In this document: positions 260-43,234 of the stretch, piece after piece
Numbering within the stretch: position 1 is the first letter of the stretch
Layout of the letters: the number at the start of each line of letters is the position of its first letter
Virus record (IMG/VR): IMGVR_UViG_3300037116_000081
Coordinates: 1 to 64,000 of that record
Length of the DNA: 64,000 nucleotides
Strand: one strand, 5' to 3'
Origin: a virus
The notes under the pieces: model-generated
Told to the model about the DNA's origin: nothing
What the model saw: the letters and a program-made list of their open reading frames with translations, nothing else
Databases searched by the model: none
Position numbers and translations under genes: made by a program

Positions 260-314
260 TGTATCAATCCTGCCTCAGCGCGCGCACGCCGTCAAGACCC
301 GGAAGTACTAGGAC
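260..314 (-). promoter_or_regulatory. Leaderless sigma70-type promoter (TTGACG-17-CAGGAT-6-ATG), repeated at 510-566 and 41366-41422
   Basis: Three near-identical ~55-bp copies, each ending 6 nt before an ATG. Confidence 0.7.
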
Positions 315-365
315 TCACACGCCAGCATCATCTTCCGTTTCGCGCTGAACTGGGGTTTCAGCGCG
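266..365. repeat. Direct repeat copy 1 (promoter, gene end and hairpin)
   Basis: 100 bp with 2 mismatches versus 41374-41473. Confidence 0.95.
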
Positions 366-512
366 TGAAGCATTTTCGCTGAATGGTGAAGGTAATATAG
401 ACCCGTCCGGAAAAACCTCAAACAATGCTCCACAATCCCGGCACTGCAAGAGCATCCACCCAGCGCGCTTCAACACGCCGCCGCAATCACATCCGGACGA
501 CCGTACATCCAT
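315..512 (-). CDS. Small Zn-ribbon-like protein
   Basis: Two Cys pairs; leaderless start; C-terminus RAETPVQRETEDDAGV is encoded across a hairpin site and is identical to that of 41423..41623. Confidence 0.55.
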   Translation of the reverse strand: MDVRSSGCDCGGVLKRAGWMLLQCRDCGALFEVFPDGSILPSPFSENASRAETPVQRETEDDAGV

Positions 513-592
513 GCGTCAATCCTGCCTCAGCGCGCGCACGCCGTCAAGACCCGGAAGTACTAGGACCGTCGAGAAAAGCGCCAACATAAAAA

Positions 593-874
593 TCAAAGAC
601 CGTAGCGCTGAGCGTGCTCCATCATCCGTGGCCACCAACTACCAGGCTGAGGACGGGGTCCGTCGTAGCCAATCATCCAGTATTCCTTTTGGGCTATGCG
701 TTCTCGCCGTTCTCGATACCGCCGCGTTATCTCTGCGCGATAGGTCAGTGGGCCAATTCGTGGTTTAGGCTGGTATGGGTTGCGCGTTCTCCATGCCCTG
801 GTTGCCGCACGCGACCTGCACTGCGCGCAGTAGTGAGAGCCGCACTGGCACACGCTGCGCTTCGCGAGTATCAT
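593..874 (-). CDS. Hypothetical protein
   Basis: C-terminus (EYWMIGYDGP..QPGSWWPRMMEHAQRYG) shared with 41625..41828. Confidence 0.6.
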   Translation of the reverse strand: MILAKRSVCQCGSHYCAQCRSRAATRAWRTRNPYQPKPRIGPLTYRAEITRRYRERRERIAQKEYWMIGYDGPRPQPGSWWPRMMEHAQRYGL

Positions 875-1368
875 TCCAACCTAAACACCGTCCCGTCAAA
901 CCAGATCGGGTATTCGCGTCCTGGTATCAGAGAAGAGGCTACCGGGTCCGTCAGACCGTCCGCTTGCTTGATGGCAACGGGATTACCGCTGACTTGGTCG
1001 ATCGCCAATGAGCAATGGCCCGCCGCGTTAGTCACGTCGGGCACTAACCTGAGATGCATCCCCTTGGCATAGATAGTCAAAGCTTGGCAACCAGCCGGCC
1101 CGAACTGGTATGTGTAGGCGAAAGTCTTGTTGCTCGACGCCACGAAGTCACAGACGCCGGATTGCGCCGTGGCCTTCGTGAGCAACGTTGCAGTGTTGGC
1201 ATCCACGAACCAGCCTTTACCTGGCGTGAAATACTGAACCAGGTTCTTACCCATCTGGAGACCCTGGAAGGGGTTGATTGCCGTGGTGCCCCGTATTTCG
1301 GTTATCACCAGCGCGCACAGCACTGTCAGCGCAACACCTTGGAGTATTCTCTCTAATGGCGATACCAT
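871..1368 (-). CDS. Exported protein with fibre/adhesin-like C-terminal domain
   Basis: N-terminal hydrophobic segment; paralogue of 42153..42635. Confidence 0.7.
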   Translation of the reverse strand: MVSPLERILQGVALTVLCALVITEIRGTTAINPFQGLQMGKNLVQYFTPGKGWFVDANTATLLTKATAQSGVCDFVASSNKTFAYTYQFGPAGCQALTIYAKGMHLRLVPDVTNAAGHCSLAIDQVSGNPVAIKQADGLTDPVASSLIPGREYPIWFDGTVFRLE

Positions 1369-1985
1369 GCGACCAATCCATCCGGCGTCGGAGTTGATTG
1401 AGGAATCGCGCCAGCAAGAAACGTGATCGTATTTCCAGACAGCGTGTAATCGATGCCCGCGGTTTGCAAAAGCCCGTTTCGGATCAGCATCAGGCTACCG
1501 GCCGGCGAAGGCGCCGCGGCAAGGACAAACGTGGCGTTGACGCCGTTGACAGTTCCGCCTGGTACTTCAGCATCCGAAAAGTTTCCGCCGCTTCCTGCTG
1601 GTCCCTGTGGCCCCGTTGCGCCGGCCGCTCCGGCTGCACCTGCGGGTCCGGTCGCGCCAATAGTGCCGGCTGGCCCCTGCGCACCTGTAGCACCGGCCGG
1701 CCCCGCGGGTCCAGCAATCGAACACCCCGTAGCAGCCGCGTTAAACGTAATAGAGCCGTGTGTCCCTGCCACTGTCGGATAGGTCACCACAATGCAAGCG
1801 GATTTATTGTCCAGCTCGACAATCGCCCCGGTTGGAGTCACGGCAATGACCGAGCCGGCCGGCACCGCTACCGTGGCTTTGATTTGCTGCTCAAGGCTCG
1901 GCTTGGTCTGGCCATGCAGGACCGCGACAAGGATGCCCCCTACTCCGATACAAAAGAGCGAGCTAACGATGAGAACTCGTTTCAT
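1353..1985 (-). CDS. Secreted collagen-like (Gly-X-Y) protein
   Basis: Signal peptide, ~14 GXY triplets and a beta-rich C-domain; paralogue of 42620..43234; TTGCGC-17-TAAGCT promoter just before the ATG at 1985. Confidence 0.85.
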   Translation of the reverse strand: MKRVLIVSSLFCIGVGGILVAVLHGQTKPSLEQQIKATVAVPAGSVIAVTPTGAIVELDNKSACIVVTYPTVAGTHGSITFNAAATGCSIAGPAGPAGATGAQGPAGTIGATGPAGAAGAAGATGPQGPAGSGGNFSDAEVPGGTVNGVNATFVLAAAPSPAGSLMLIRNGLLQTAGIDYTLSGNTITFLAGAIPQSTPTPDGLVAWYRH

Positions 1986-2023
1986 GCAGACAAGCTTACT
2001 CCAGTTCCCGAAATCGCGCAATA

Positions 2024-2254
2024 CTACGCCAGCTCCGCAAGCAACGTCAGTTTCGCTCCAAACGCCGGTTGAGTCGCCCAGGTCATCGCTATCAGGGTAG
2101 CCGAGAGCACGCCCAGGAAGACGCCGACAGCCGCAAGCGGCGCGACGACTGAAGCCAATCCTGGCATCGCGATAATCCCAAACAGCACCAGTAACATGCT
2201 GATGAAAGAGCCGAGCGCGAGCCCAGCGATAAAGCCTTTGTGTTCGTTACTCAT
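2024..2254 (-). CDS. Small 2-TM membrane protein
   Basis: Two hydrophobic helices; AAGGA RBS. Confidence 0.6.
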   Translation of the reverse strand: MSNEHKGFIAGLALGSFISMLLVLFGIIAMPGLASVVAPLAAVGVFLGVLSATLIAMTWATQPAFGAKLTLLAELA

Positions 2255-7518: not shown

Positions 7519-7572
7519 AGTATACGTACCTTAGGAGCGCGGTTGCAACTGGAAAATTATTGCGGTTACACT
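7519..7572. promoter_or_regulatory. Back-to-back promoters sharing one palindromic -35 (TTGCAA)
   Basis: TATACT (-, 7519-7524) and TACACT (+, 7567-7572) are each 18 bp from TTGCAA at 7543-7548. Confidence 0.6.
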
Positions 7573-7580
7573 TACGCTTC

Positions 7581-8807
7581 GTGGACTATCTCGACAGCGG
7601 CTCTATGTACGGGTCCTTAGATAGCGCTCCCCTTGCGCCTCCGGATCCGCAATCGTCAACGCCAGCGAGCGCAGCGATCGCGAAAACTGGCCCTATCATT
7701 AAAGAGAAGATCCCCGCGGCGCCCGACACCGACACATCGACTAAGCAGACCATTGCGAAGATGTGCGAGTACATCGCGGCCGGCGCCTCCGATGACGTGT
7801 GCCAGTTATGGGCAAAGCAAGCGCGCGAACGTTGGGCTGGCCAGTTCAACCAAGTAGCGTCTGTAACCGGCCGAATGGTGCCGCAAACCTCAGGCGATTG
7901 TTGGGGCGTGTGGTGGATGGTGAAACACGCCGTCAAGTTCGCGAAGGACGAACCGCGGTTGTTTCAGATCGGTGAGCCCGATGCGCTCGATTTATTGATA
8001 GCGCCCGCGGTGCTCGTGCGTGAACAGGATCGCAAGGAAGATTGCGACGGCTTCACGATGCTGGTGTGCTGCCTACTCAAGATTCTGGGGATCTCATCGG
8101 TCATTGTGACGGTGGCGGCGGACCCATCCGATCCGGAACGCTGGTCGCACGTCTTCCCGATGGCTGAAGTGAACGGTGCGTATCTTCCAATGGACGCATC
8201 GCACGGAAAGTTCCCTGGCTGGATGGTTCCGCGCGATCACATCTCCCGATGGCAGGCTTGGGACCTCAACGGCAATCCAGTGCAGGCGTTTCCGTCACAG
8301 GCGAAGAACACGCTACACGGATATCTTCCACGCGGGGCGCCGATGCGGAAACGCGGGATGCGCGGACTCGGGCAGACGGACTATACATCAGTGGCGAGCT
8401 CCACGGGTGACTACCAAGTTTTCAGTGATGGCACAGTCTTTGATCCGAACGGCAATGTCGTTACAGATTTCAGCGCGTTGCCTAACTCGTTAACGACCCA
8501 GATTAACAGTGCCCTGAATCCGCTGGCCATCAGCACGCCCGCAACGCCAACTGCCACCAGCGCGTCCGGAACCCCTACCAACTGGACCGGCATTATCAAC
8601 AGTATCGTTTCAGGCGGATTGAAAGCAGCGCAGCTTGCGACGTTGCCTCCGGGCTATGTGATCGGCGCGAATGGCCAGCCCGTGTACACAGGGCAGTCCG
8701 CGGCGAATGCACAACTCACATCCAGCTTCGCGAGTATCCTGCCGTGGTTAGCGATTGGATTGGTTGCGGCTGTAGTGGTCATTCCACTTCTTGGGAGCAA
8801 GCAGTGA
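7581..8807 (+). CDS. Transglutaminase-like cysteine protease/acyltransferase with C-terminal membrane anchor
   Basis: EDCDG...HVFP...PMDAS Cys-His-Asp triad; RGMRGLGQ motif; PW-TM tail; start is GTG 7581 or ATG 7605. Confidence 0.8.
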   Translation: MDYLDSGSMYGSLDSAPLAPPDPQSSTPASAAIAKTGPIIKEKIPAAPDTDTSTKQTIAKMCEYIAAGASDDVCQLWAKQARERWAGQFNQVASVTGRMVPQTSGDCWGVWWMVKHAVKFAKDEPRLFQIGEPDALDLLIAPAVLVREQDRKEDCDGFTMLVCCLLKILGISSVIVTVAADPSDPERWSHVFPMAEVNGAYLPMDASHGKFPGWMVPRDHISRWQAWDLNGNPVQAFPSQAKNTLHGYLPRGAPMRKRGMRGLGQTDYTSVASSTGDYQVFSDGTVFDPNGNVVTDFSALPNSLTTQINSALNPLAISTPATPTATSASGTPTNWTGIINSIVSGGLKAAQLATLPPGYVIGANGQPVYTGQSAANAQLTSSFASILPWLAIGLVAAVVVIPLLGSKQ

Positions 8808-9557
8808 ATGTACGTCTCTTCAAGATCTTCCGTCTCGCGCTGCACTGGAGTAGCAGCGCGGGGAACAGTCTCGCGATCGCTTGGCGATATCTCCTCACCG
8901 CAGTCCATCAATCAGATAGTAACGGTTGGCGCATCGACTACTGTTGGAATTCTTGTAGCGTTAGGCACGGTTACGGGTCCGATTGGAGCGGCCATCGCTG
9001 GCTTGATCGCAGTTGGCTCGCTTATCGCCAACATGTTTCACGGCTGTGGGCAGACCTGCGTAGTCGCGACACAGGACGCGAACAAGATCGGCGCGTTGCT
9101 CGATCAGAATCAGGCAGCGTATATGAACGCCCCGGTTCACTACAAGAGCTTGCAAGCGGCGGCGCTAAACAACATCAACACGCTCGCGGCGGCATTGCAG
9201 CAAGCGTGCAGCGATCCATCTTTAGGGCAGGCTGGGCAGCGCTGCATCTCCGAAAGATTGGTCAGGCGTCCGTGTCCGAGCACGTTGAACGATTCGAATA
9301 TCGGCGGCGGGCAGATCAAGTTCTGCGATTACTGGAGCTTCTATTACGATCCGATCGCGAACGATCCGAATGTAGTTCCGGACCCCACGCCAGCTTCGTC
9401 GGGTCCAGCTTCAGCGGCGGTCTCTTCGGTGGGCTCCGCAATTTCTTCTGTGCTGCCTTCATCGGTCAGCAGTCTTTTGACCGGGAGCGTCTTTGGTCTT
9501 CCAGTGTGGCTGCTCGGCGCGGTGGCGCTCACGGCCTTGTGGGTGGCGAGCGAATGA
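8808..9557 (+). CDS. Putative virion membrane protein
   Basis: SLGD motif, Gly/Ala TM hairpin, Cys-rich domain and C-terminal PVW-TM. Confidence 0.75.
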   Translation: MYVSSRSSVSRCTGVAARGTVSRSLGDISSPQSINQIVTVGASTTVGILVALGTVTGPIGAAIAGLIAVGSLIANMFHGCGQTCVVATQDANKIGALLDQNQAAYMNAPVHYKSLQAAALNNINTLAAALQQACSDPSLGQAGQRCISERLVRRPCPSTLNDSNIGGGQIKFCDYWSFYYDPIANDPNVVPDPTPASSGPASAAVSSVGSAISSVLPSSVSSLLTGSVFGLPVWLLGAVALTALWVASE

Positions 9558-9615
9558 TCCGTTTTCCTCGCATCCTCGCATCATTTTCCTCGCATCCTCG
9601 TATTGCGGAGGCCTT

Positions 9616-10443
9616 GTGTTTCTAAAAGTACAAGCGGGGCTCTCCGGCATCGGCCAAACCGTTCTGATGCGTCAACCAGGCGGGCGCGTGATGCGCGTCC
9701 AAATGCCGATCGTGTTGGATAGGCCTCGGGGGATGCGTGGCTTAGGCGTTACGTGTCCCACGGGCTTGGTGCAGGCTGCAAACGGCGGCTGCATTGATCC
9801 TGGTTACGCTCCCAACAAAAATGTAGCGGCGGCAAGTCCCAAAGCCGTGACCTACGCATCGGCTCCCGGCTGCAACGTGGTGAACCTCGCATCGAACGAA
9901 TGCATGTTGGACGACGGGACAATCACGGGCTGCAACATCATCCAGCAGTGTGATTCGCTCACCGGCAACGCGAGATGTCAGTATGGGCCGTTCCCTGGCC
10001 AAGCTGCTGATCCAAGTTTGCCGTTCTGCTCTGGAAGCGGGCCGTCCGTTTCGTACACGCCGAATTTGAGTCTCACGAACCCGACAGGGCCGTCAACGCC
10101 GTTCACTCCCACGGCGCTTGCGCCGAATGCCGTTCCGGTAGGATCGAGCCCCACGGCGGCGCAGGTTAAAAGCCTGCTTGGGCAGACTCAGCCTACATCG
10201 TCAACGGCAGCGAGTTCGCCGGCGGCATCGCCAACACAGCCGAGTTCCCAAACGAATTTTCTCCAGCAACTCTTAGCCGGGCCGAATCCTCCAGCGGGCG
10301 GATCGACTACGGCGGTGGCGTCTTCGGATAGTTCGTTATTTAGCGGTTCGCTCGACGTGTTCGGTATGCAGATTCCATACTGGCTCATTGGTGTTGTGGT
10401 CGTCGGCGGCGGGATTCTCCTCATGAGCGGGGGCAAGAAATGA
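9616..10443 (+). CDS. Cys-rich tail-anchored virion membrane protein
   Basis: GGAGG RBS and GTG start; GLSGIGQ and RGMRGLG motifs; PYW-TM-GGKK. Confidence 0.75.
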   Translation: MFLKVQAGLSGIGQTVLMRQPGGRVMRVQMPIVLDRPRGMRGLGVTCPTGLVQAANGGCIDPGYAPNKNVAAASPKAVTYASAPGCNVVNLASNECMLDDGTITGCNIIQQCDSLTGNARCQYGPFPGQAADPSLPFCSGSGPSVSYTPNLSLTNPTGPSTPFTPTALAPNAVPVGSSPTAAQVKSLLGQTQPTSSTAASSPAASPTQPSSQTNFLQQLLAGPNPPAGGSTTAVASSDSSLFSGSLDVFGMQIPYWLIGVVVVGGGILLMSGGKK

Positions 10444-12768: not shown

Positions 12769-12832
12769 GACGACTGAGGGACACCCCGAAAGCTTCAACG
12801 CGCTGCTACTCCAGTGCAGCGCGAAACGGAGA

Positions 12833-33048: not shown

Positions 33049-33049
33049 G

Positions 33050-33371: not shown

Positions 33372-33719
33372 TCATAAGCGAGTGAACGTAATCTGATCTC
33401 CTACTTCTGTTGAAAGTGCTCCCCCAGAAGGAAGCTCAAGCACAGAATTGGAGCCGGATACTTCGGCGATTCTGAACCCAGGCGGTGCCGCAACATGCTG
33501 AAGCACGCGCCCGCGATTGTCCAGGTACAGCACGTCAATCGGAAACTTCATCCCCACCGTATGAACGCTCTGGCACTTCAAAATCAGCAAGCCTTCGCCG
33601 GCCTGCATCGACGTTCGATCGAGTAGCCCGCGCGTTCGTTCCTGATCTGATTGAGCTACTTTACAGACTGAACAGAGGAGTATTTGTTTGGTTTGATTGA
33701 ATACTCTAAGGTGGGCCAC
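33372..33719 (-). CDS. DUF192 family protein
   Basis: ER.RGLL.R...G.LI...SVHT.GM.FPIDV.YLD...VLEL..G motif. Confidence 0.9.
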   Translation of the reverse strand: MAHLRVFNQTKQILLCSVCKVAQSDQERTRGLLDRTSMQAGEGLLILKCQSVHTVGMKFPIDVLYLDNRGRVLQHVAAPPGFRIAEVSGSNSVLELPSGGALSTEVGDQITFTRL

Positions 33720-33788
33720 TTCAATTTCCAGGAGTTATCGGCAGGGCACTGGAGTAGCCCTGCCCAAGAGGTTGGACGGTCGTAGAGC

Positions 33789-34175
33789 TCACTGATAATC
33801 ATCCTCGTCTCCTGAGTGCAACTGGCGGTCAGGGATTACCGGAATGTATATATTGAGCGGTTCAGGGCGAATCGTAGCGGCAACCGTGCGCGCTACGCCT
33901 TCAGATACAAGAGTGATCGAATACACAGCGCCGTTCCCAAAAAACTTGGTAAACGCGGGCATCGCGGATTCCTCGGGACGTCGCGCTGGCAACTCCGGAA
34001 CATCGACGCGCACGAAGTTACATCCACCGATTGCGAACTCGGAAACCTTGCCGGCGTATTTTTGATGTCCAAAGATTTCGATAATCGCCCATGCTTCAAA
34101 AGCAGCGGGGGACGGTTGAGCAGGTTCGCCTACCCGTCCCCCTTTGGGGTGTTGAACTTGTTTGCGAGTGCCCAT
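33789..34175 (-). CDS. Conserved phage protein, inverted paralogue of 29223..29600
   Basis: Direct alignment. Confidence 0.8.
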   Translation of the reverse strand: MGTRKQVQHPKGGRVGEPAQPSPAAFEAWAIIEIFGHQKYAGKVSEFAIGGCNFVRVDVPELPARRPEESAMPAFTKFFGNGAVYSITLVSEGVARTVAATIRPEPLNIYIPVIPDRQLHSGDEDDYQ

Positions 34176-34387
34176 TTTTCATAACTCCCAACGTCCTGCA
34201 TTCCAGAGCAGGACGAAACGAATAAATCCCCGCGCCCGGCTCCGTTTCACCTTTTCTGATCACCCCCCGGTAATTTTCAAGGGAAGCGGAGCCAGACACG
34301 AGACGCCCCGAATCTCCGCCGCTCGGGACCACGCGGGTTGCAATCGACGCTCGCCCGGCTAAGGTTGCGGCGCCGATCCGGAACTTG

Positions 34388-34960
34388 TTAAAGCTTCTTA
34401 GCAGCCTTGGCTGTCGCTTGGGCTGCTGTGGTCGTCGCGGTGGTACTCGTAACGGGCGTCGCGACTCCGAACAAATCACCAACCGCCGTCGCTGCTGTCG
34501 GTGACACAGTAACGGTATCGGTCAACGTTTCCGCCGTCGATCCGTCCTTGTTGAGCACCGTCACTGTACAACTGATGGGGACATTCGGCTGCGCGGGAGC
34601 GGAAGGCGTCGATACCACACCGCTAAGCATGGTGAAAGTGCCAGCCGGAACCGAAGCTGTAGCATCTGCCGGCCGCACCGCTACGGGTGATGCGTCAGGC
34701 GTCAACGCGACGGTGGCAGGGTCCGCCGATACAGCGCTAATGGTTTGACCAGGGCCGAGCAACGCGCCAAGAAACGGAGCGGTGCCGAAAATGTAGAAAT
34801 TGTCTGTGTCCCCTACGGGAAGAATCAATGGCATATTTTCTCCTTTTGACTTTGAAAACAGAATGCCGATCCGACTTGGAACCGGGTTAATTAACCGTCG
34901 AAGCTCCTTGAGTATTTCTCTTTCAAGCTCAAGAATTTCTCTAAGCTCTGCGGGCCACAT
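34388..34960 (-). CDS. Ig-like beta-sandwich protein (in-frame fusion of two ORFs)
   Basis: Internal AAGGAG+ATG at 34834; paralogues 45023..45172 and 44545..45021. Confidence 0.7.
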   Translation of the reverse strand: MWPAELREILELEREILKELRRLINPVPSRIGILFSKSKGENMPLILPVGDTDNFYIFGTAPFLGALLGPGQTISAVSADPATVALTPDASPVAVRPADATASVPAGTFTMLSGVVSTPSAPAQPNVPISCTVTVLNKDGSTAETLTDTVTVSPTAATAVGDLFGVATPVTSTTATTTAAQATAKAAKKL

Positions 34961-34962
34961 TT

Positions 34963-35181
34963 CTAGGCCGTGGGTGTTGCGGGCTTCGCCGCGGCGGTTT
35001 TTGCCGCTATCGCTGCCTGAAGTCCTTGAATGGCCGTCATGGCCGCAGTGTCATTGACGTCCGCCTGGGCGAGCACCATAATGGTAGTGCTGCCGTCCGG
35101 ATGCACCAAGCTAAGAATCAGGTTCACGATCCCCGGAGCCTGACCGATCAATGTTGTGATGATTGGCAATATCAAGCCCAT
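34963..35181 (-). CDS. Small amphipathic protein
   Basis: Paralogue of 45174..45389. Confidence 0.7.
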   Translation of the reverse strand: MGLILPIITTLIGQAPGIVNLILSLVHPDGSTTIMVLAQADVNDTAAMTAIQGLQAAIAAKTAAAKPATPTA

Positions 35182-35661
35182 TTATGTCCCCACCTTTGCT
35201 TGGATTATTTGGAGCGTCACCACGAGACTGCTCAGCGCTGTCGTGATAGCCACCTTTGCGGCCGCGTTTTTGATATTGAAAACATCCCCGGAGGTGATCG
35301 ACGCCTGCGCCTCTTGAATGATTGGGGTGATAATCGCCGCTATCGAGGTATTCCCCGCAGCCGCGAGCGTACTGATGGCTTTGGTTGCCGTCACAGCGCG
35401 CACATTGGCGTTGATGATGTCCGTCAGGAGCGCCGCTACCCTAGTTCCTTCAGCCGGCGTCATAGCGCCCTGGTTCACCAACGCCGTGCTCGTGTTGGCA
35501 ACGATCGTCACGCCTTGGGGAATGGCCACTTCGGCATTGGCCACAATCTGAAGCGGTGTGAGCGCAGGCGCGCCGACCGAGCCTACTTTCGCGCATCCAG
35601 TCAACGCCACGAAAAAGATGAGCGGCAGGATCAGTGCCGCACGATGAAATTTAATAGGCAT
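35182..35661 (-). CDS. Helical lipoprotein
   Basis: Lipobox LTGC; paralogue of 45391..45882. Confidence 0.75.
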   Translation of the reverse strand: MPIKFHRAALILPLIFFVALTGCAKVGSVGAPALTPLQIVANAEVAIPQGVTIVANTSTALVNQGAMTPAEGTRVAALLTDIINANVRAVTATKAISTLAAAGNTSIAAIITPIIQEAQASITSGDVFNIKNAAAKVAITTALSSLVVTLQIIQAKVGT

Positions 35662-35662
35662 G

Positions 35663-36019
35663 TTAGCTCAGTACGTTTTGAATGCTCTCGCCGTTTGCCA
35701 CGCGCACGATGATCATTCCTGCCGCCTCGTAGTTCCCAAAGGCTTCGATCCAGATTTGCAGGTACAGCAAATCGTTCGCCGGGTCCACTCCGAGCGTGGT
35801 CAGGTCTTGGTTCGGGTCCACCCACGGGGCCGAGCCGTTATTCTGTGTGGTGTTGAGCGGGCACATGAGGTTTTGGCCCCCACCCGTTTCGTTAGCGAAG
35901 AGCGCGATCGGTTGGCCTTTGTCGATACCGGCCGCGACGATTGAAGCTATCAGGGCTTGCGCCGCGTTCACGGTCACATTCAGCGAAGCGCGCCCCGCTG
36001 TGAATCCTTGAGTGTTCAT
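35663..36019 (-). CDS. Hypothetical protein
   Basis: AAGGAG RBS; paralogue of 45885..46232. Confidence 0.75.
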   Translation of the reverse strand: MNTQGFTAGRASLNVTVNAAQALIASIVAAGIDKGQPIALFANETGGGQNLMCPLNTTQNNGSAPWVDPNQDLTTLGVDPANDLLYLQIWIEAFGNYEAAGMIIVRVANGESIQNVLS

Positions 36020-36368
36020 GTATTTCTCCTTTTTATTTTACCGCTACCAGGTTCTCAACCATCATACTGCAATTCAGATAAGAAGCAAGTACCGGAGCGT
36101 ACCAGGACCTTACTCCGTTTCGCGCTGAACTGGGGTTTCAGCGCGTGAGGATTTGCGGGCACGCCACCACAGTTCTGGATCTCCGCTGCGATTCTTGTGC
36201 CATTTACCTTTGTGCCCCTTAGGGAGCGAGCATTGAGTGCCCCCACGCTTTCCGAACTCAGTTGAACGGCAACGCCTCACGATTGACCTCCCAACGTGCT
36301 GCTACTCCAGATTGACCTCCCAACGTGCTGCTACTCCTACTCCAGTGCAGCACGAGACGAATATAACC

Positions 36369-37202
36369 TCACAGAAATCTTTGATTGACCCAGCTCTGTA
36401 CTCCATCCAGAAACTCAATTGGCCCAAAAGGCGTCTCCTGCGTTTTCCCGCATTCGTAATCCCAAACAGGCTCCCAGAGCTGAACCGATAACAGATCCCG
36501 CAAGTCCCGCTCAATCTCCGCGCTGTGCGTTGCGATGTGCAAGCGCTTCACTTTCGCGTTGAGGTCATCCAGCCCTGCGCGGATCACGAGGTATTCCTGG
36601 CCCTGTATGTCCACGTCGATCACATCGACTAACTGGTGAGGGCGCAGAAGATCGGCCAACGTGACGGTTTCAGTTGTTAGCCCTTCTTCATTGAGCGTAG
36701 CTATCCGTTGTCCGTACCACTCAGCCGGCCGGCCAGTCAGAAAGAGACATTCGCCCGGTGTGTCCGATACTGCGGCTTCGACTAATGTCGGAATGATGCA
36801 AGGCGCTATGCCGAGTCCGTTATCTCGGCAATGTTGCAACATCCATTGGTAATGCGTGGGCTCCGCCTCCACCGCTACCAATCGGGTTCGCTCTAGCCCA
36901 GCCGCAAACGCCGCCCGCACAGACCAGCGGCCATATCCGGCGCCCAGCTCCATGAACGTATAAATTTCGTTCGCGGCCTGCACGGATTCCAGTAGATCAA
37001 TCCACTCAAAGTACTCTTCGTTGAACGCAGGAAGCCCAGCTACTCCTACGGCGCCCGGCCCTTCCCTCGTTGTCTGCGCGGTGAATTCCGCCCGCGAAAC
37101 AGTTCCGAGGAAGCTGTCACTTAGAAAAACAGGATTGCCCCACATGCGTAGAGGAGCCGGCTTCCGCACGAAATGAGAGAAGACTGGGTGATGTTCAGGC
37201 AT
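36369..37202 (-). CDS. FkbM-family SAM methyltransferase
   Basis: MELGAGYG, VAVEAEP, AAVS and VD.IDVDIQG.E motifs. Confidence 0.9.
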   Translation of the reverse strand: MPEHHPVFSHFVRKPAPLRMWGNPVFLSDSFLGTVSRAEFTAQTTREGPGAVGVAGLPAFNEEYFEWIDLLESVQAANEIYTFMELGAGYGRWSVRAAFAAGLERTRLVAVEAEPTHYQWMLQHCRDNGLGIAPCIIPTLVEAAVSDTPGECLFLTGRPAEWYGQRIATLNEEGLTTETVTLADLLRPHQLVDVIDVDIQGQEYLVIRAGLDDLNAKVKRLHIATHSAEIERDLRDLLSVQLWEPVWDYECGKTQETPFGPIEFLDGVQSWVNQRFL

Positions 37203-37205
37203 TGC

Positions 37206-37529
37206 TCAAATCGATTCCCAAAACGATTCCCTTGTCTTGAATGGAGGAGACTCAACATTTTCCGTCCCGCGCTGAACTGGGGTTTCAGCGCGTTGAGCAC
37301 TCATCCACTTACTGAGGGCCTTCGATGCGCAGGGTTCGGAGCAGATGTGTTTTTCTACTGTGTCGTCACCCGCGTTTACAACCGTCGTATCCCATGGGAT
37401 TAATATAAAGACATCGGCGATCAACAAGCTCGGCGTTCGCTGTTGCGCGTACGGCCTTAACCTCCACCAGTGATTCGATTCCTGCTTTTGCTTCCCGCAC
37501 CCATCGCACGAGTAGACTTCGGATTTCAT
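37206..37529 (-). CDS. Zn-binding hypothetical protein
   Basis: CDGCG...NHWW...HICS..C. Confidence 0.65.
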   Translation of the reverse strand: MKSEVYSCDGCGKQKQESNHWWRLRPYAQQRTPSLLIADVFILIPWDTTVVNAGDDTVEKHICSEPCASKALSKWMSAQRAETPVQRGTENVESPPFKTRESFWESI

Positions 37530-37819
37530 TCCGCCATCCGTCCTTTACAGAACTCGCGATGCGCTCCCCGCTGGCCCTGAAGCAACATCACTTCCACGCA
37601 ATTACAGCACAGCCCCGCGTGTTCATCATTCGCGCCTGCGCTCAGTAGCGCGCCGCACTTCCGGCAATTGTGTGGTTCAAACAGCGGACGGAGACGCGTT
37701 CCCAGGTCCCTACAGAATCGCGCGAACTGAAACGGATCAGAAACAGCCAATCCCAAACCAAGCAACGCGAGCAGAGGGAAGAACAACACCAGGCCGACGT
37801 AATTGAATGCGCGTCTCAT
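37526..37819 (-). CDS. TM plus Zn-finger protein
   Basis: N-terminal TM; two CxxC. Confidence 0.5.
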   Translation of the reverse strand: MRRAFNYVGLVLFFPLLALLGLGLAVSDPFQFARFCRDLGTRLRPLFEPHNCRKCGALLSAGANDEHAGLCCNCVEVMLLQGQRGAHREFCKGRMAE

Positions 37820-38001
37820 ATTGGCCTCGCTATTACATCGTGGCTATAATGGTCCCACCAGAAATCATGAAAGCGACTCGCGTTCAACTCGCCGGCATCG
37901 GCTTTTAGCTGATCGAAGTCGGGCTCGAGCAACTCCTGTTCTGACGTGGCAACAAGCGAAGGGAACGCGAGCGAGCACGATTTACAGAACAGTTCGAACA
38001 T
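37816..38001 (-). CDS. Small hypothetical protein
   Basis: Coupled; CxxC ... HxxH. Confidence 0.5.
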   Translation of the reverse strand: MFELFCKSCSLAFPSLVATSEQELLEPDFDQLKADAGELNASRFHDFWWDHYSHDVIARPI

Positions 38002-38643
38002 TTACGCGGCCCTTCGGCTCTTCCCCACGCCTGCGTTCACGTGAGCCAGCGCGGTTTTGAAAAGCTCATCGAAAGATTGCCCGTCTTTGCCGGCCGCGAG
38101 TACGGCCTCCTGCGCTTCAGCAAAAGGAACTTTCAGATTGCAGAGAGCAGAGAGCACATCTTGATGAACTGAAGAAAGCATTTCGCGGTATTGTACTACA
38201 CTTCCACGTTTTGCGTTTCGCGCTGCACTGGAGTTGCAGCGCGTTGGGAGTTCTTTCCCGAAAACTTTGGCAGGACCTCCCACAGTTGCCCGGTTAGGCG
38301 ACGTACCCGACCATTTCTGGCTGTGACTTACCCGTCCCTGTTGTGCCTGGACGCCGATGGATTCAGATTTCTCTGAACGGACGGACTCGCTCATCTCAAG
38401 GTCCTGGGTCTTGCGACCGCGCTTATATGCGCCACTACTCCAGTGTGGCGCAAGACGAAAACTATCGAGATTCAAAAAGAGCCGGGCAACCTTACTGCAA
38501 CCGATTGCCCGGACAAGAAGTACATGCGAAATTACAGATACTCCAAAGCCTATCAGAAACATCCACCCAGGTAAAGAGCGAGTCGCAACCACGCAGAGGG
38601 AAACCAGGGCGACACCAGCGAGGAAGCTGTAGGCGTGTTTCAT
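38002..38643 (-). CDS. Membrane protein with RuvA C-terminal-like domain
   Basis: Two TM, a linker holding two hairpin sites, then QDVLSALCNL....EA..AV.....FDELFK.AL. Confidence 0.55.
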   Translation of the reverse strand: MKHAYSFLAGVALVSLCVVATRSLPGWMFLIGFGVSVISHVLLVRAIGCSKVARLFLNLDSFRLAPHWSSGAYKRGRKTQDLEMSESVRSEKSESIGVQAQQGRVSHSQKWSGTSPNRATVGGPAKVFGKELPTRCNSSAARNAKRGSVVQYREMLSSVHQDVLSALCNLKVPFAEAQEAVLAAGKDGQSFDELFKTALAHVNAGVGKSRRAA

Positions 38644-38945
38644 TTTAACACCTCAGCATTTTCCGTCTCGCGCTGAATTGGAGTCGGATCGTCAGGCAGA
38701 AGTTCCAGTTCGTTTAGCTCGAATGGTATCGCCCCGCCGAGCATCATCTTGGGACCGAAGACCTCAAAGATATTCCAGAGCTGAGTTTCGATCAAGCCAT
38801 CCCGCCAGCCGGAATAGACTGCGTCACAATATTTTTCCCCATCCTGGATGTGGCCGAACACCACACGCGAATAGAAATTAACGAGGATGTTTTGCCCGTG
38901 TCTGTTGAGCTTCACCCGGACTCGTCGGTTAAGGTTGATCTTCAT
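38640..38945 (-). CDS. Conserved phage hypothetical protein
   Basis: NLN..V.VKL...G...QLW.....FG pattern. Confidence 0.7.
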   Translation of the reverse strand: MKINLNRRVRVKLNRHGQNILVNFYSRVVFGHIQDGEKYCDAVYSGWRDGLIETQLWNIFEVFGPKMMLGGAIPFELNELELLPDDPTPIQRETENAEVLK

Positions 38946-39060
38946 GATTTATTTTGTCCCGAAACCAGCCACAAAACAAGTAACCAAAGTACCATTCTTG
39001 TCGTAGTACGAAATCCCTATGTGCTGCATTCCAGGGCAGCACAAGACGCAACCTGCCCAG

Positions 39061-39216
39061 TCAGCAATCGCCGAAATTAACAGTCCAGAGCGCTACAATC
39101 TTCTGCCAAAACGATCCATGGCCGGTCATCTGTATTTCACAGGTCCCGTACTTATAAGTAGTCGCCAGCAATGGCAGACCGCAGATCAGCACACCACATG
39201 CGAGAATGCGTTTCAT
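39061..39216 (-). CDS. 51-aa secreted peptide
   Basis: MKRILACGVLICGLPLLA signal; AAGGAGG RBS; copy at 51971..52126. Confidence 0.7.
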   Translation of the reverse strand: MKRILACGVLICGLPLLATTYKYGTCEIQMTGHGSFWQKIVALWTVNFGDC

Positions 39217-39279
39217 TTGCCTCCTTTCTCCCCATTTTCTTCGTCTCGCGCTGAACTGGGATTTTAGCGCGTTGAGCTT

Positions 39280-39567
39280 TCAGTCCGTGTGGCATCGAAA
39301 ATACCAGCCACCGTTTTGAGACTTGGTCCTCGGGATATCCGGGTCTTTTCCGAAGCGCGGTTTTGCGCAACGCGCCTGTTCAAGCCAATCTCCCCGATCC
39401 GTCGCCGCAATAATCACCACCGGCTGAGATAATGGCATTTCCGCAAACACGATCAAACAAGCGCCTACCTGCGGAATGATAGACCGCTCATGGAAGCCTA
39501 CGACAAGGTACCCGCGTTCCTGAATCAGGAAGCTTGCAACTTCATCACCTTTGGTCATGATGCTCAA
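39280..39567 (-). CDS. Hypothetical protein
   Basis: Bracketed by hairpins 39242 and 39576; C-terminus resembles 43662..43970. Confidence 0.6.
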   Translation of the reverse strand: MSIMTKGDEVASFLIQERGYLVVGFHERSIIPQVGACLIVFAEMPLSQPVVIIAATDRGDWLEQARCAKPRFGKDPDIPRTKSQNGGWYFRCHTD

Positions 39568-39971
39568 CCTCCCAACGTCCTGCTACTCCAGTGCAGGACG
39601 AAACGAATACCATTCCTCATAAGAATAGCGGCTATAATCACCACTCCGAACCACAACATGGACGGCTCCGGAGTAATCGTTGGCGGTGGCACGTACGGCG
39701 GCGGCACAATTGTCTGTCCTGGAGGAATCACAGGAGGCCCCGGAGGGATGACCACGGCCACATACGCAGGCGGCTCCCACGTCTCCGCTTTCGGCGCGCA
39801 CCATTGGATTGCAGGGTTCAGGACCGAATTCTCACAGATAATTTTATCCGTCCCATAACCCGGAAAGTAGACTACCGTTGTCCAGGCGTCCTGTTGCAAG
39901 GTGATCACGAGATCGCCGTAGGTAAACGGTGTCGTACCGTTCCCCATTGGCTGCTGAAGATTGACACTCAT
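39564..39971 (-). CDS. PEP-CTERM-like protein
   Basis: TPEPS-TM-basic tail; paralogue of 51522..51881. Confidence 0.7.
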   Translation of the reverse strand: MSVNLQQPMGNGTTPFTYGDLVITLQQDAWTTVVYFPGYGTDKIICENSVLNPAIQWCAPKAETWEPPAYVAVVIPPGPPVIPPGQTIVPPPYVPPPTITPEPSMLWFGVVIIAAILMRNGIRFVLHWSSRTLGG

Positions 39972-40447
39972 TAGCATTCCTCCGTCTCGCGCTGAACTGG
40001 GGTTTCAGCGCGGGGAACCTCCGACCAATCCCAGAGACTTAGCGCGCCTTTTGCAGGAATCGGAGTTTCGAACGCGCGCACATTTTTAAGTATCCAACCA
40101 AACCGATTCGGAGAATAGTCTCCGAATGCACGCTCTCTTTCCGTGTCCAGTTCAGGGTAATCGTCAAACACTCCCGAGAGGCAGCCGCGCGCCTCTGTCG
40201 GAAGAATGTCAATGAGTTCGCATGTTGCGATAATCTTCCCAATAGGAAGTTGTAACGCGGACACCACGGAAAGGGAAGAACGGAATGGCTCAATTAGAAC
40301 GTAATCGCGGCAATCGGGCGGGAAGCCCTTCGCGGCGTGTATCGCAAGCGGCCCACGGTACGCGGTGCTCCAGGAGCGTGTCTCGATTCTCTTCGCCCCG
40401 AGTGCTACAAGCGTAGCCCATGGCTGAGTGAGAGTCAGGGCTTTCAT
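39971..40447 (-). CDS. ASCH domain protein
   Basis: KALTL.QPWA.L...GAK.IETRSW...RGPLAIHA...P.KG.L.LW. Confidence 0.92.
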   Translation of the reverse strand: MKALTLTQPWATLVALGAKRIETRSWSTAYRGPLAIHAAKGFPPDCRDYVLIEPFRSSLSVVSALQLPIGKIIATCELIDILPTEARGCLSGVFDDYPELDTERERAFGDYSPNRFGWILKNVRAFETPIPAKGALSLWDWSEVPRAETPVQRETEEC

Positions 40448-40617
40448 GCGAGACCTCCCAACGTGCTGCTACTCCAGTGCAGCACGAAACGAATACTACT
40501 CCTCATTCTTTGGCCATTTCGCACGGTCAGTCTTAGGGTACTTTGCGTTCGACGTAAACACTTCGTACGCAGCCATCCCGAGCAGGCATACGATGAGGAG
40601 AAAGCATCCAAGTGCAA

Positions 40618-41058
40618 TCATGCGGCCCTCCGTTGAATCAACTGATCTCTAAGGTATTCCCCGCAGACACGGAAAGCTCTGAGAATCGCATTCTTGGCCC
40701 CATAGGCAACCGGATCTAGCAAGAATTCTTGCCCTCTGTAAAGCGCATGCCAGTAACGCAAGCCTGCTTCTTCCTCACGTGGGACGATTACCAGCCGCGG
40801 CTTCTCTCTCAACTCCCGTAAAATCTCCTGCACATCCAATTCGTAAGTCTGAATGAATCGCGGCCATCCGATCCGGTGTTGCTCTTCGTGATGCGCGGAG
40901 CACAGCGGCAACGTGTCCAGGTCAGAGCGCTTCTGTCCCATCCCGCGTGATCCCGGAGCGTGCGCCGCTTGGACTCCCCGCGTGCGGCCGCAACCTGGCA
41001 CAGCGCAAGGAAGCGTGCGGATGAAGGCGAGATGTTCGGGAGAGCGTGTGGGAGTCAT
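40618..41058 (-). CDS. DUF968/HNH-like Zn nuclease
   Basis: HLAFIR.LPC...CG...AAH...GMGQK..D...PLC..HH..QH. Confidence 0.75.
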   Translation of the reverse strand: MTPTRSPEHLAFIRTLPCAVPGCGRTRGVQAAHAPGSRGMGQKRSDLDTLPLCSAHHEEQHRIGWPRFIQTYELDVQEILRELREKPRLVIVPREEEAGLRYWHALYRGQEFLLDPVAYGAKNAILRAFRVCGEYLRDQLIQRRAA

Positions 41059-41062
41059 GTGT

Positions 41063-41368
41063 CTACAAGAACCTCTGCGCTACCCAACCGACTCCCAGGA
41101 TCATCAGCAGTCCACAAATTTCATAGATTTCCCTAAAGTGAAAGGGATATTCTCTTTCGGGTTTGGGCTTCTTGAAATTACGCCGCCTGAACATCGCGAC
41201 AAGGCAGGACACGCCAATACTTCTTGCTACACCCAACGGTCTGACGTCGGTATAGGAAACGATAAACCACAGCCAAAAAAAGCTGGTTACGTATCCGGCC
41301 AAAACAATACTGATAGGCACCAGCAATATCCCGACGCAGCCCCAAGCCGAATCTTTTGTTTCGCCCAT
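41063..41368 (-). CDS. 3-TM membrane protein
   Basis: Leaderless start after the repeated promoter. Confidence 0.65.
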   Translation of the reverse strand: MGETKDSAWGCVGILLVPISIVLAGYVTSFFWLWFIVSYTDVRPLGVARSIGVSCLVAMFRRRNFKKPKPEREYPFHFREIYEICGLLMILGVGWVAQRFL

Positions 41369-41373
41369 GCGTT

Positions 41374-41473
41374 AATCTTGCCTCAGCGCGCGCACGCCGT
41401 CAAGATCCGGAAGTACTAGGACTCACACGCCAGCATCATCTTCCGTTTCGCGCTGAACTGGGGTTTCAGCGCG
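41374..41473. repeat. Direct repeat copy 2
   Basis: Matches 266-365. Confidence 0.95.
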
Positions 41474-41623
41474 TTGAAAGTTCGCAACAAAGAATTGGCG
41501 CGAATAAAATCCCACGTCGCCTGAGTCGAACTTCACCGCGACGTAATTGCATCCCAGATTCACCTTGGTGATTTCACCAACGCTCCGTCTCGTAACTTTG
41601 TCACCCACTTTGAAATCTTCCAT
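41423..41623 (-). CDS. Small SH3/KOW-like protein
   Basis: FKVGDKV...G.I......V.F; shared C-terminus with 315..512. Confidence 0.55.
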   Translation of the reverse strand: MEDFKVGDKVTRRSVGEITKVNLGCNYVAVKFDSGDVGFYSRQFFVANFQRAETPVQRETEDDAGV

Positions 41624-41624
41624 T

Positions 41625-41828
41625 TCACCAACCGTAGCGCTGAGCGTGCTCCATCATCCGTGGCCACCAACTGCCCGGCTGTTGGCTGGGTCCGTCGTAG
41701 CCGATCATCCAGTATTCCCGCGCGCCTTCGAGAATTCGCCTTGCTCCCCCGCTACCTCCCGGCATGTACCAACCTTCACGCATCGCGAGCGCTCGGTCCT
41801 TTCGTGGCAGGCTTACGATCTGCTTCAC
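41625..41828 (-). CDS. Hypothetical protein, paralogue of 593..874
   Basis: Shared C-terminal ~28 aa. Confidence 0.6.
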   Translation of the reverse strand: MKQIVSLPRKDRALAMREGWYMPGGSGGARRILEGAREYWMIGYDGPSQQPGSWWPRMMEHAQRYGW

Positions 41829-42181
41829 TACTTTCCTTTGGCGAATGATTCACGGCAGTCCACTTGGCCGCCGTTTAAGATTGGAATTCCACCCTTGGCT
41901 ATGCACGCATCGACTATCTTGGTCTGGATTTCCAGCATTCGTTTGTTTGATTCCATGCCGAATTGCAGGTCACGTGCGCTCTGTGCAGCCTTCGTCACTT
42001 CTTCGCTAGACGCGCAACTCTTGGTCAGTTGATCCCGAAGTGGCTGGTTCAAAATCGCACCGGCCATCCAGCCGCCAATCATCGCCCCGAGAATCCCTAG
42101 CAGCAAACTGCAAAGCAGGGTGGTTCGCAAGTTCATGTTAGGCTCACTTTCATCATTCCAATCTAAAAACCGTTCCGTCAA
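41828..42181 (-). CDS. Membrane-anchored protein
   Basis: TM plus a CIAKGG.P motif; start uncertain. Confidence 0.6.
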   Translation of the reverse strand: MTERFLDWNDESEPNMNLRTTLLCSLLLGILGAMIGGWMAGAILNQPLRDQLTKSCASSEEVTKAAQSARDLQFGMESNKRMLEIQTKIVDACIAKGGIPILNGGQVDCRESFAKGK

Positions 42182-42635
42182 ACCAGATCGGATATTCCTG
42201 CCCTGGAACCAACGAACTCGCCGTCGGATCGTTCTTGCCCGTCTTGTCTTTGATGTTCACCGGCCCTACATTGTCGATGTTCAGTGAGCATACGCCCGTC
42301 GCGTTCGTCACGTCGGGCACCAGCCGCAAATGCATTCCTTTGGTGTACACCGTCAGAACTTGGCAACCGGCCGCACCGAAAGAGTACGTGTACGCTGGAG
42401 TCTTGTTGCTCGAAAACACCGCATCACAGACGCCGGATTGCGCCGTGGCCTTCGTCAGAAGCGTTGCGGTGTTGGCATCAACGAACCAGCCTTTACCTGG
42501 CGTGAAATACTGAACAAGATTCTTGCCCATCTGAAGGCCTTGCATGGGATTGATTGCCGTCGAGGCGAGCGCGGCCGCAACGCAGAAGCCGACCGCGGCG
42601 CCGCAGAGGAACCCGCGGCTCAGTGACGATACCAT
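42153..42635 (-). CDS. Exported protein, paralogue of 871..1368
   Basis: Direct alignment. Confidence 0.75.
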   Translation of the reverse strand: MVSSLSRGFLCGAAVGFCVAAALASTAINPMQGLQMGKNLVQYFTPGKGWFVDANTATLLTKATAQSGVCDAVFSSNKTPAYTYSFGAAGCQVLTVYTKGMHLRLVPDVTNATGVCSLNIDNVGPVNIKDKTGKNDPTASSLVPGQEYPIWFDGTVFRLE

Positions 42636-43234
42636 GCGACAAGTCCATCCGGAGTCGGAGTCGACTGGGGAATCGCACCGGCCAAGAACGTTATCGTGCT
42701 TCCCACCAGCGTGTAATCGATGCCCGCAGTTTGAAGTAGTCCGTTCCTGTGCAGCAAAAGGCTCCCGGCCGGCGAAGGCGCCGCGGCAAGCGTAAAGGTG
42801 GCGTTAACTCCGTTGACTGTTCCGCCTGGTACTTCACCATCCGAGTAGTTGACGCCGCTTCCTGCCGGTCCCTGTGGCCCAGCGGGTCCCGTTGCACCGA
42901 TCGCTCCGGCCGGTCCAATTGCTCCAGCGGGTCCCACTGATCCGTTTACCCCAGCAGTTCCGGTTGCTCCTTGCGGTCCAGCCGGTCCAGCGATCGAGCA
43001 TCCGGGAGCTAAAGCGTTGAATCCGATCTTGCCATGAGTTCCCGAAACAGTCGGGTAAGCCACAGTGATACAGGGTGAGCTGATGTCCAGCTCAACAATC
43101 GTGGCTGTTGGGGTAACCGCTAAAATGGAGCCCGTCGCGATCGCTACCGATGCTTTGGTTTGCTGTTCGAGGCTCGGCTTCGTTTGAGCCCCGAGAGTTG
43201 CGAGAGCCGCGAAAAACAGGAGTAAGATGCGCAT
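42620..43234 (-). CDS. Secreted collagen-like protein
   Basis: Signal peptide and GXY run; leaderless TTGCGC-17-TACACT promoter. Confidence 0.85.

Follow-up and report, generated by a model that had tools for sequence, protein, structure and literature searches.

Does the IMG/VR record IMGVR_UViG_3300037116_000081 describe one viral molecule, or two viral genomes joined to each other? The window considered here comprises positions 1 to 64,000 of this 85,924-bp record, and the whole record has been examined. It is a single contig, rated by CheckV as 100% complete. A previous sequence-only reading had proposed that a 41.1-kb circle from a tailless virus recombined into a tailed phage, a chimeric assembly being considered equally possible. 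The present analysis indicates, with a probability of roughly 78%, that the 85.9-kb record is a chimeric assembly of two virus genomes, resulting from a walk through a figure-eight graph.

Comparison of the record with itself revealed that its final 316 nt match positions 41623-41938 and its initial 159 nt match 42180-42338, with exact identity over the last 127 nt (41812-41938) and the first 87 nt (42180-42266). The record therefore ends inside the X2-Y-Z module found next to both repeats (see below), an additional copy of which straddles both ends of the 85,924-bp sequence. Its layout is that of a figure-eight in which a hairpin-rich virus lacking tail, terminase and portal genes (virus A, 1-42179, 42,179 bp) and a siphovirus-like phage (phage B, 41939-85924, 43,986 bp) meet at a shared segment located at about 41812-42266 (no strand assigned) and defined by the end and start identities of the record; the two lengths add up to 85,924 + 241 bp. 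Two different entities are joined, as had been proposed, with a circle of 42.2 kb for virus A instead of 41.1 kb. The unique body of virus A (1-41811, no strand assigned), in which no head or packaging family was matched, makes up the 42,179-bp circle together with the shared segment, and the unique body of the tailed phage B (minus strand) extends from 42267 to 64000 and on to 85,924 of the record. The stretch common to A and B takes in X2 and X1 together with the 3' half of Y; about 455 bp of it are identical or present as a single copy, and identity is 93-96% across about 716 bp (41623-42338). Direct copies of this stretch flank phage B (41623-42338 versus 85609-85924 plus 1-159), an arrangement that is expected equally from an assembly chimera and from a Campbell-type cointegrate. 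Both halves have a G+C content of 0.56, and tetranucleotide usage correlates at r 0.86-0.90 between A and B and at 0.93 within each. About 10 gene families are common to both (31-98% amino acid identity), a lysozyme is present in each half separately, and a family search of the left-part and right-part ORFs recognised a DNA polymerase in neither.

The syntenic, diverged modules that had been described near both repeats were found again, with 92% nucleotide identity between 599-686 and 41631-41718, 77% between 870-1613 and 42152-42880, and 76% between 1808-1913 and 43084-43190. All the module genes lie on the minus strand. On the A side these are a truncated Y gene, dY' (1-249), which runs off the record start, retains only the C-terminal half of Y as judged from its match to the translation of Y_B, and is 93% identical to 42180-42338 over positions 1-159; a fragment gene of X2 (593-874, 93 aa), whose final 87 nt match the record-end copy at 98.9%; Y_A (871-1368), a secreted-looking protein of 165 aa with no match to any Pfam or PHROG family; Z_A (1353-2021), a collagen-repeat protein; and a 76-aa hydrophobic protein upstream of Z_A (2024-2254), which by eye may be holin-like and was found with the same sequence in the related contig L015. 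The module copy at 41.6 kb includes X2a (41625-41828, 67 aa), 94% identical to X2b at 85611-85814, and an extra gene, X1 (41828-42136), within the shared segment, which encodes a 102-aa protein whose N-terminal part carries a hydrophobic segment and which has no family in a Pfam search. Sequence comparison identified the next two genes as the full-length Y gene of phage B, Y_B (42153-42635), and its collagen-repeat gene, Z_B (42620-43234); the A and B proteins are 72% (Y) and 76% (Z) identical.

The long direct repeats that had been regarded as the junction are real, their copies starting 41,108 bp apart (257-369 and 41365-41478; 114 nt, 94.7% identity, BLAST E 5e-44, longest exact run 68 nt), and both end, as described, at an identical hairpin with a 9-bp stem and a 7-nt loop (341-365 and 41449-41473). 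However, both lie inside virus A, at a spacing of 1,071 bp on the circle, and the join is the longer shared segment. Each repeat consists of a hairpin and a promoter-like unit belonging to A. On the minus strand, the first copy contains hairpin H1 followed by the 58-nt promoter-like unit P1 (257-314), and the second contains hairpin H3 and P3 (41365-41422), which immediately precedes the ATG of the 41063-41368 gene. A third copy of the unit, P2 (509-566, minus strand; family D14, 97%), stands in the same way just before the ATG of ORF65 (315-512), so that all three copies are within A. On the A circle the repeats flank a B-like insert in a variable region, formed by the truncated Y, X1, X2 and ORF66 (41423-41623, minus strand), a gene whose 3' end passes through H3. 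The hairpin is a member of a dispersed family with at least 13 + 7 copies between 322 and 41476, and counts of its four loop 9-mers were 18 in A, 1 in B, 14 in an A-like record (G001, hereafter G1) and 0 in a B-like one (G002, hereafter G2).

The functional analysis of phage B assigns it, from its predicted genes, to the Caudoviricetes, with large terminase (phrog_2, 1.6e-19), portal (phrog_10963, 2.7e-53), capsid protein (Phage_capsid_4, 4.2e-15) and tape measure (59514-63506; TMP_3 at 7.3e-6, below Pfam's cut-off) all present, together with a prohead protease. Its large terminase matched 188 GenBank phage records, all at less than 60% identity and at 28-33% in the 10 matches listed. The B body also contains an endolysin gene directly upstream of Z_B (43250-43651, minus strand; Phage_lysozyme, E 3.3e-18), a Gam-like gene (49673-50383) and a beta-helix spike gene (57338-58612). 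A beta-helix spike protein is also, in a relative, among the gene families shared by A-like and B-like lineages. Upstream of the large terminase gene (83407-84891), at a distance of about 0.7 kb, lies X2b; two small genes are found in between.

Virus A carries an endolysin and many small membrane-anchored proteins. Profile searches of A gave no match to terminase, portal, HK97-type capsid or FtsK/HerA families, no ATPase family was found among its 71 ORFs, and none of five Walker-A-like strings across six frames was credibly placed. The absence of a recognisable integrase, already pointed out, held for integrase and recombinase families among the 71 left-part and 54 right-part ORFs (Pfam, E<=0.001), all 9 matched families on the left and all 18 on the right having been inspected. 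The capsid candidate of A is a 308-aa protein (19633-20559, plus strand) modelled with two predicted beta-barrels (pLDDT 80.7) and followed by a weak paralog (20370-21365). Foldseek aligned this model with PRD1 P3 (E 1.4e-4, probability 0.97, but TM 0.22) and PM2 P2 (E 3.8e-4); VIA Z was 8.0 or less against capsid proteins, and non-capsid beta-sandwiches scored equally. A sequence search of the PDB with this protein gave no match (best E 0.51). Virus A resembles the tailless internal-membrane phages (PRD1, PM2; SH1 and HHIV-2 types) in this two-barrel protein, whose best fold matches include their capsid proteins, and in combining small membrane-anchored proteins with the lack of terminase, portal and HK97-type capsid matches. 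Cultured bacterial members of that group have genomes of about 10-20 kb, compared with 42 kb in A; the search of A for a packaging ATPase of the FtsK/HerA type found none, and the fold matches are only middling (TM 0.2, Z <=8).

Separate relatives of both parts were found. The A-like record G1 (44,054 bp) and the B-like record G2 (39,407 bp) have terminal repeats and are 100% complete according to CheckV. Of the 246 HSPs that G1 gives at 60 bits or more, 241 are located in A, and no large terminase was matched in G1; in G2, all 94 HSPs fall in B, none in A, and the regions of B at 48.2 kb and 85.5 kb are neighbours. The 43,412-bp contig L015, a closer relative of A, is syntenic with it at 85-96% nucleotide identity and joins Z-Y straight to a P unit and the DUF968 gene (window positions about 870 to about 40893), with no B sequence between them. 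Neither G1 nor L015 contains genes X1, X2 or dY'. The 308-aa protein has 101 relatives, the longest contig among all of them being 44,983 bp or less. No fused A-B form was found among the relatives of either lineage.

The coverage comparison that had been suggested as a check was carried out with word depths of Logan contigs (k = 31), which are not raw reads and drop rare variants. Depth differs between the parts in runs X1 and X3, and a clear step is absent in two of the four runs (X2 and X7). Run X1, which holds 0.95 of the sampled words and is the presumed source sample, gave error-free contigs with depths of 11.5, 10.2, 10.4, 10.2 and 12.4 on the A side (10-12) and of 28.2 and 27 on the B side (27-28), a 2.6-fold step located at 41.4-42.5 kb. 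The ratio is the opposite in run X3, with A (bins of 9.5-18.5) well above B (0.08-8.3 in 12 of 14 bins, one of 8.64 and one of 17). Run X2 gave A-side depths of 6.5-16 and B-side depths of 5.8-25, and in run X7 both sides swung from 0 to 2,128. Contig 6 of run X1 (781 nt, depth 31.4) agrees with the record-end copy in 6/6 listed letters, includes the 15-nt flank of that copy and continues mismatch-free from 41812 to 42453. This contig is the parental B junction, closing the B circle, and it is the only junction independently seen.

An assembly join is favoured by the depth step in run X1, by the separate complete relatives and by the final 127 nt of the record, which repeat part of the shared segment exactly; the chimeric assembly that had been given equal weight was therefore a live alternative, but not an equal one, and the cointegrate as such is most likely an artefact. 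Two viruses of one peat community, each with a circular or circularly permuted genome, would have been present; the assembler would have started just inside the common stretch, circled A, crossed the stretch into B, circled B and halted on re-entering the common stretch. Three points are inferences: that the A circle closes, what the 241 nt missing between record end and start are, and which assembler was employed. Against a clean graph reading, the exact match of the record start to the internal copy covers 87 nt, and not 127. Chimeric metagenome contigs form at repeats shared between genomes, and the present record is like them in ending in the joining repeat, in the different depth of its parts and in the occurrence of each part alone elsewhere, among relatives. 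The repeat is not a transposon or rRNA gene, but a gene piece recently exchanged between unrelated virus lineages, so that the artefact itself speaks for an interaction that is real.

The shared stretch is real, and it shows that A and B swap genes. Most likely, A acquired its B-like insert from a B-like phage during co-infection, and the acquired piece would be the homology that misled the assembler, which could also permit occasional real recombination. The lineages very probably infect the same host, and hairpin and promoter-like units appear to be the sites at which they trade cassettes. PMC12715192 reports that genes are transferred between double jelly-roll phages and phages unrelated to them, in work on Vibrio prophages and filamentous phages. 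That case is similar in that a non-tailed lineage exchanges genes with a phage lineage of other architecture, and different in that here a tailed phage is the partner and the data come from uncultured peat contigs.

Although unlikely, a true Campbell-type cointegrate of about 86.2 kb, formed by recombination across the segment of about 0.7 kb and existing alongside free A and B, is the alternative that survives best. Cointegrates of this type arise by homologous recombination of two circular replicons, and their defining evidence is equal depth plus spanning molecules. The layout is exactly as one crossover predicts, with direct segment copies flanking one partner, one of them with A and B flanks and the other split over the record ends, and no integrase is needed; an assembly chimera, however, yields the identical layout. 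The similar composition of A and B and their common gene families make real recombination between them plausible, and the sharing of those families at 31-98% identity indicates that it was repeated. On the other hand, partners in equal copy number were not found in the probable source run, where the 2.6-fold depth difference allows at most about 40% of B copies to be fused, nor in run X3; the sole independent junction is parental, neither lineage has a fused relative, and relatives complete at 39-44 kb suggest that about 86 kb would be roughly twice the capacity of either capsid. There is a slim chance that some molecules of this peat community are true cointegrates in which a tailless virus of jelly-roll type is fused with a tailed phage via the 0.7-kb piece that it captured from the phage. 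If so, such an intermediate could carry genes from one virus realm to the other, or allow one genome to be transported in the particle of the other.

It is very improbable that A is a hitchhiker of B, having copied a B segment just upstream of the terminase genes so that the B machinery packages A. The position of X2b, the near-equal lengths (42.2 and 44.0 kb) and the absence from A of a credibly placed P-loop motif in any frame and of terminase or FtsK/HerA families would fit this idea, but A has capsid candidates of its own, and both G1 (complete, with terminal repeats) and L015 lack the B-like piece. Phage satellites such as P4 and PICI borrow the capsid of their helper; A is like them in having no recognisable packaging enzyme and in sharing DNA with a complete tailed phage, and unlike them in being as long as its would-be helper, in its capsid candidates and in having relatives without the shared piece. 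Least probable of all is a single 86-kb tailed-phage genome, whose left half would be an accessory or early region with regulatory hairpins and an internally duplicated module: the single contig with its completeness rating, the equal G+C content, the lysozyme in each half and the polymerase recognisable in neither agree with it, but it conflicts with the depth step in run X1 and the opposite ratio in X3, with complete terminal-repeat relatives carrying one half each, with the direct joining of the two ends of the left half in L015, and with a 308-aa protein family never found on a contig above 45 kb.

With an assembly join as the preferred explanation, the 85.9-kb record, listed as one complete virus, should be split into genomes of 42.2 kb and 44.0 kb. 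What stays real is an uncultured 42-44 kb virus lineage without a known packaging enzyme that has about ten gene families in common with a siphovirus-like phage, the nearly identical 0.7-kb piece among them. The sole hint of a host was one binned Bryobacteraceae contig.

The 85,924-bp record, of which the window is the first 64,000 bases, has been interpreted, with a probability of about 0.78, as two complete genomes joined in assembly through a segment (about 41812-42266) that is real and was exchanged recently: a hairpin-rich virus, named A (1-42179), and a siphovirus-like tailed phage, named B (41939-85924). The sequence-only reading had proposed that a 41.1-kb circle recombined into a tailed phage through two direct repeats, a chimeric assembly being equally possible. 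The joining of a tailed phage to a second entity was retained, since terminase, portal and tape measure genes were found in B and none in A, but the 41.1-kb circle and the repeats as junction had to be abandoned, because both repeats lie inside A and the circle measures 42,179 bp. Chimeric assembly was borne out, as the more probable reading rather than an equal one, a real cointegrate being considered, as a minority form, improbable.

Self-comparison of all 85,924 bases has revealed that both ends of the record fall within the gene module that adjoins the repeats, which comprises the genes X2 (small basic protein), X1 (membrane-anchored, only in the copy at 41.8 kb), Y (secreted-looking) and Z (collagen repeats). 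Its last 316 nt are 95.6% identical to 41623-41938, the final 127 nt without a difference, and its first 159 nt are 93% identical to 42180-42338, with an exact match over the first 87 nt. The record, classed as linear in IMG/VR and 100% complete by CheckV, closes on itself if the 241 nt between the end and start matches are supplied once more. A single 86-kb genome is an unlikely reading. The same graph can alternatively be drawn as two circles, A of 42,179 bp and B of 43,986 bp, equal together to 85,924 + 241. The default largest word size of metaSPAdes is 127, and the exact 127-nt terminal overlap equals this value, which is no more than a hint, the 87-nt start overlap fitting less neatly. 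An exact scan with a 30-nt pattern from the truncated Y of A (1-249), directed to the closure of the A circle, gave no match in viral_contigs or metagenome_contigs, where near-identical records were possibly left out, and a 33-nt X2 pattern gave none in viral_contigs, where records very near the window's own were possibly left out, so that these negatives carry little weight.

Among the matches listed, 36901-46900 was present in 24 peat and permafrost runs from 22 studies. Four runs were compared over 31901-51900, with contigs built from 31-letter words and one depth figure per contig. Run X1 (not the gene of this name), probably the source of the record, contained 0.95 of the words, and its error-free contigs showed depths of 11.5, 10.2, 10.4, 10.2 and 12.4 on the A side and 28.2 and 27 on the B side, with the step between 41.4 and 42.5 kb. 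One contig of this run, 781 nt long and with a depth of 31.4, has the record-end form of X2 at each of the six listed letters by which this copy differs from the internal one, as well as 15 flanking letters of the end copy, and continues without mismatch through 41812-42453; it is the parental junction of the closed B circle, at B depth. The window's own letters at 41727-41811 were in no listed run X1 contig, but such contigs drop rare variants, so that this gap carries no weight. The ratio was reversed in run X3, with 9.5-18.5 on the A side and, among 14 B-side bins, 12 at 0.08-8.3, one at 8.64 and one at 17. No clear step was seen in run X2, and the depths of the permafrost run X7 were very uneven, with many joints, so that no reading was possible. 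Depth differing between the parts, named beforehand as one of two observations that together would speak against a joined molecule, was found in two of the four runs (X1 and X3).

The relatives of both viruses also keep A and B apart. A scan with the large terminase of B retrieved a 39,407-bp record (G002) with 72% identity, and a scan with a 506-aa protein of A retrieved a 44,054-bp record (G001) with 74% identity; each is flanked by direct terminal repeats and was rated as complete, and the large terminase had no match in G001. In the six-frame comparison of the full records, with HSPs below 60 bits dropped, 241 of the 246 G001 HSPs fell in A and all 94 G002 HSPs fell in B. The gene order of these records skips the other genome: in G002 a region like 48.2 kb adjoins a region like 85.5 kb, and in G001 the counterparts of 2.4 kb and 40.9 kb lie within 3 kb of each other, in this order (HSPs below 40 aa were dropped from one printout of these comparisons). 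The 43,412-bp contig L015 is a closer relative, with DNA 85-96% identical to A (HSPs below 55 bits were dropped in this comparison), and joins about 870 of the window directly to about 40893, without phage B, X1, X2 or truncated Y. Its gene order is a holin-like gene, Z, Y, an unrelated 190-aa gene, one unit of the 58-nt element P, a 51-aa ORF and a DUF968 gene. All 101 relatives of a conserved 308-aa protein encoded by A (19633-20559) were on contigs of at most 44,983 bp.

The direct repeats 41,108 bp apart were confirmed as a 114-nt alignment (257-369 versus 41365-41478; 94.7% identity, E 5e-44) with a longest exact run of 68 nt, and both copies belong to A, 1,071 bp apart on its circle, where on the minus strand they bracket truncated Y, gene X1, X2 and ORF66. 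Each copy ends, as had been noticed, at an identical hairpin with a 9-bp stem and a 7-nt loop (341-365 and 41449-41473). This hairpin belongs to a dispersed family, all copies of which lie between 322 and 41476, and its loop motifs number 18 in A and one in B. Shuffled sequence folds as well as the whole 124-126-nt repeat (z -1.1 and -0.5), the 9-bp hairpin alone standing out. The remainder of the repeat is the P unit, which occurs in three copies (257-314, 509-566 and 41365-41422), in one orientation and each abutting a minus-strand ATG, and could be called promoter-like solely from a TTGACG seen by eye about 30 nt upstream of the ATG in all three; a sigma-70 scan did not call it a promoter, the second hexamer being a weak match. 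In this strain of A the Y-DUF968 slot contains two P-bounded units more than in L015. An exact scan with a 26-nt P core gave no match in viral_contigs, a negative of little weight, since records very near the window's own were possibly left out. A 412-nt inverted repeat (84%; 29258-29669 and 33720-34131) was also observed in A, with paralogous genes (29223-29600 and 33789-34175) that each lie beside hairpins.

Diverged copies of the gene set do adjoin the repeats, as proposed, with 72% identity between the Y copies and 76% between the Z copies. The absence of a recognisable integrase was likewise upheld, no integrase family being found among 71 ORFs of the left part and 54 of the right part (longest non-overlapping frames of at least 50 aa plus a few alternates, sets in which short genes are missing). 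The truncated Y of A is devoid of the N-terminal half and the signal sequence, which indicates a recombination scar, and the last 87 nt of the second X2 fragment of A are 98.9% identical to the B copy. In the simplest reading, a B-like phage was the donor of the truncated Y/X1/X2 piece now in A. About ten gene families are common to A and B, with protein identities of 31-98%; a block of four genes is among them (34388-36019 versus 44545-46232). G001 encodes, at 16-1509, a 497-aa homolog of the B beta-helix spike (57338-58612) with 40% identity across 459 aa, and at this place the A of the window encodes instead an unrelated 466-aa protein; receptor-binding proteins appear to have been swapped between the A and B lineages. 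Two fragment sets in L015 (15687-16104 and 19042-19577), not present in the A of the window, share 84-93% identity with the cytosine-methylase gene of B (70828-71625 of the record). Tetranucleotide usage correlates at 0.86-0.90 between A and B and at 0.93 within each. The X2 fragment, the shared families, the spike homolog, the methylase pieces and the similar tetranucleotide usage point to a common host and repeated exchange between A and B.

The Pfam scan of the 71 ORFs of A detected only GH25 lysozyme, FG-GAP, DUF192, Dam, FkbM, collagen, DUF968/HNH and ASCH families. No head or packaging family was found in its five proteins of at least 400 aa, scanned singly, and no credible P-loop in any frame. 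The PHROG scan listed 25 of 50 matched families, so that a weak head or packaging match is possible among small ORFs; its 'tail fiber' and 'tape measure' matches were rejected as tail genes, because they arise from the collagen repeats in Z and from a transglycosylase domain encoded at 29677-30210. The 506-aa protein matched only unnamed viral clusters in the protein atlas, with a recognition value too low to be useful. A plus-strand block of 18 kb (7560-25986), with almost no known families, looks like a virion module of unknown kind. An R-G-F/M-R-G-L-G-Q-like motif is found at the start of, or within, several of its proteins; several have a C-terminal hydrophobic anchor, and two (13431-14369 and 16524-17390) have very basic, arginine-rich N-terminal regions.

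The 308-aa protein has 101 metagenome relatives, all unnamed; 50,697 phage records yielded no match. Its fold, predicted from a 40-sequence alignment, contains two beta-barrels (mean pLDDT 80.7), and Foldseek matches of this model include capsid proteins of PRD1 (E 1.4e-4, probability 0.97), PM2, PR772 and several large DNA viruses, with TM-scores of only about 0.2 and with two-barrel cell enzymes ranking equal to the capsid proteins. A second structure comparison gave no match above Z 8.0, and single barrels matched capsid proteins of SH1, HHIV-2, STIV and PRD1 at Z 6.4-7.1, with GOLD domains alongside. A is thus only plausibly a tailless virus with a jelly-roll capsid, since these middling fold matches are shared with non-capsid proteins. 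The following gene is a weak paralog (E 2e-5), and both adjacent genes lie within 19633-21365; a D-x-D-A-D-F motif recurs in both proteins, and a colinear tblastx alignment of 384 aa with G001 runs through the stop at 20557-20559, so that these ORFs may be read differently in G001. Among 185,579 species genomes, the sole relative of this capsid candidate (one of 166 pattern matches, 33% identity) was a 3,615-bp contig of a Bryobacteraceae MAG, a weak hint of an acidobacterial host.

Phage B encodes a large terminase (83407-84891), a portal (73526-75508), a tape measure (59514-63506), the beta-helix spike and a lysozyme (43250-43651), together with a prohead protease, a capsid protein, a cement protein and a Gam-like protein. 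Matches to its large terminase came from 188 GenBank phage records, each with less than 60% identity, and among the 10 matches listed the identity was 28-33%. A sigma-70-type factor with regions 2 and 4 is encoded on the minus strand between the terminase and portal genes (76633-77349 of the record), and a 46-nt unit is repeated perfectly three times in tandem (49139-49276) just upstream of the gene at 48583-49092.
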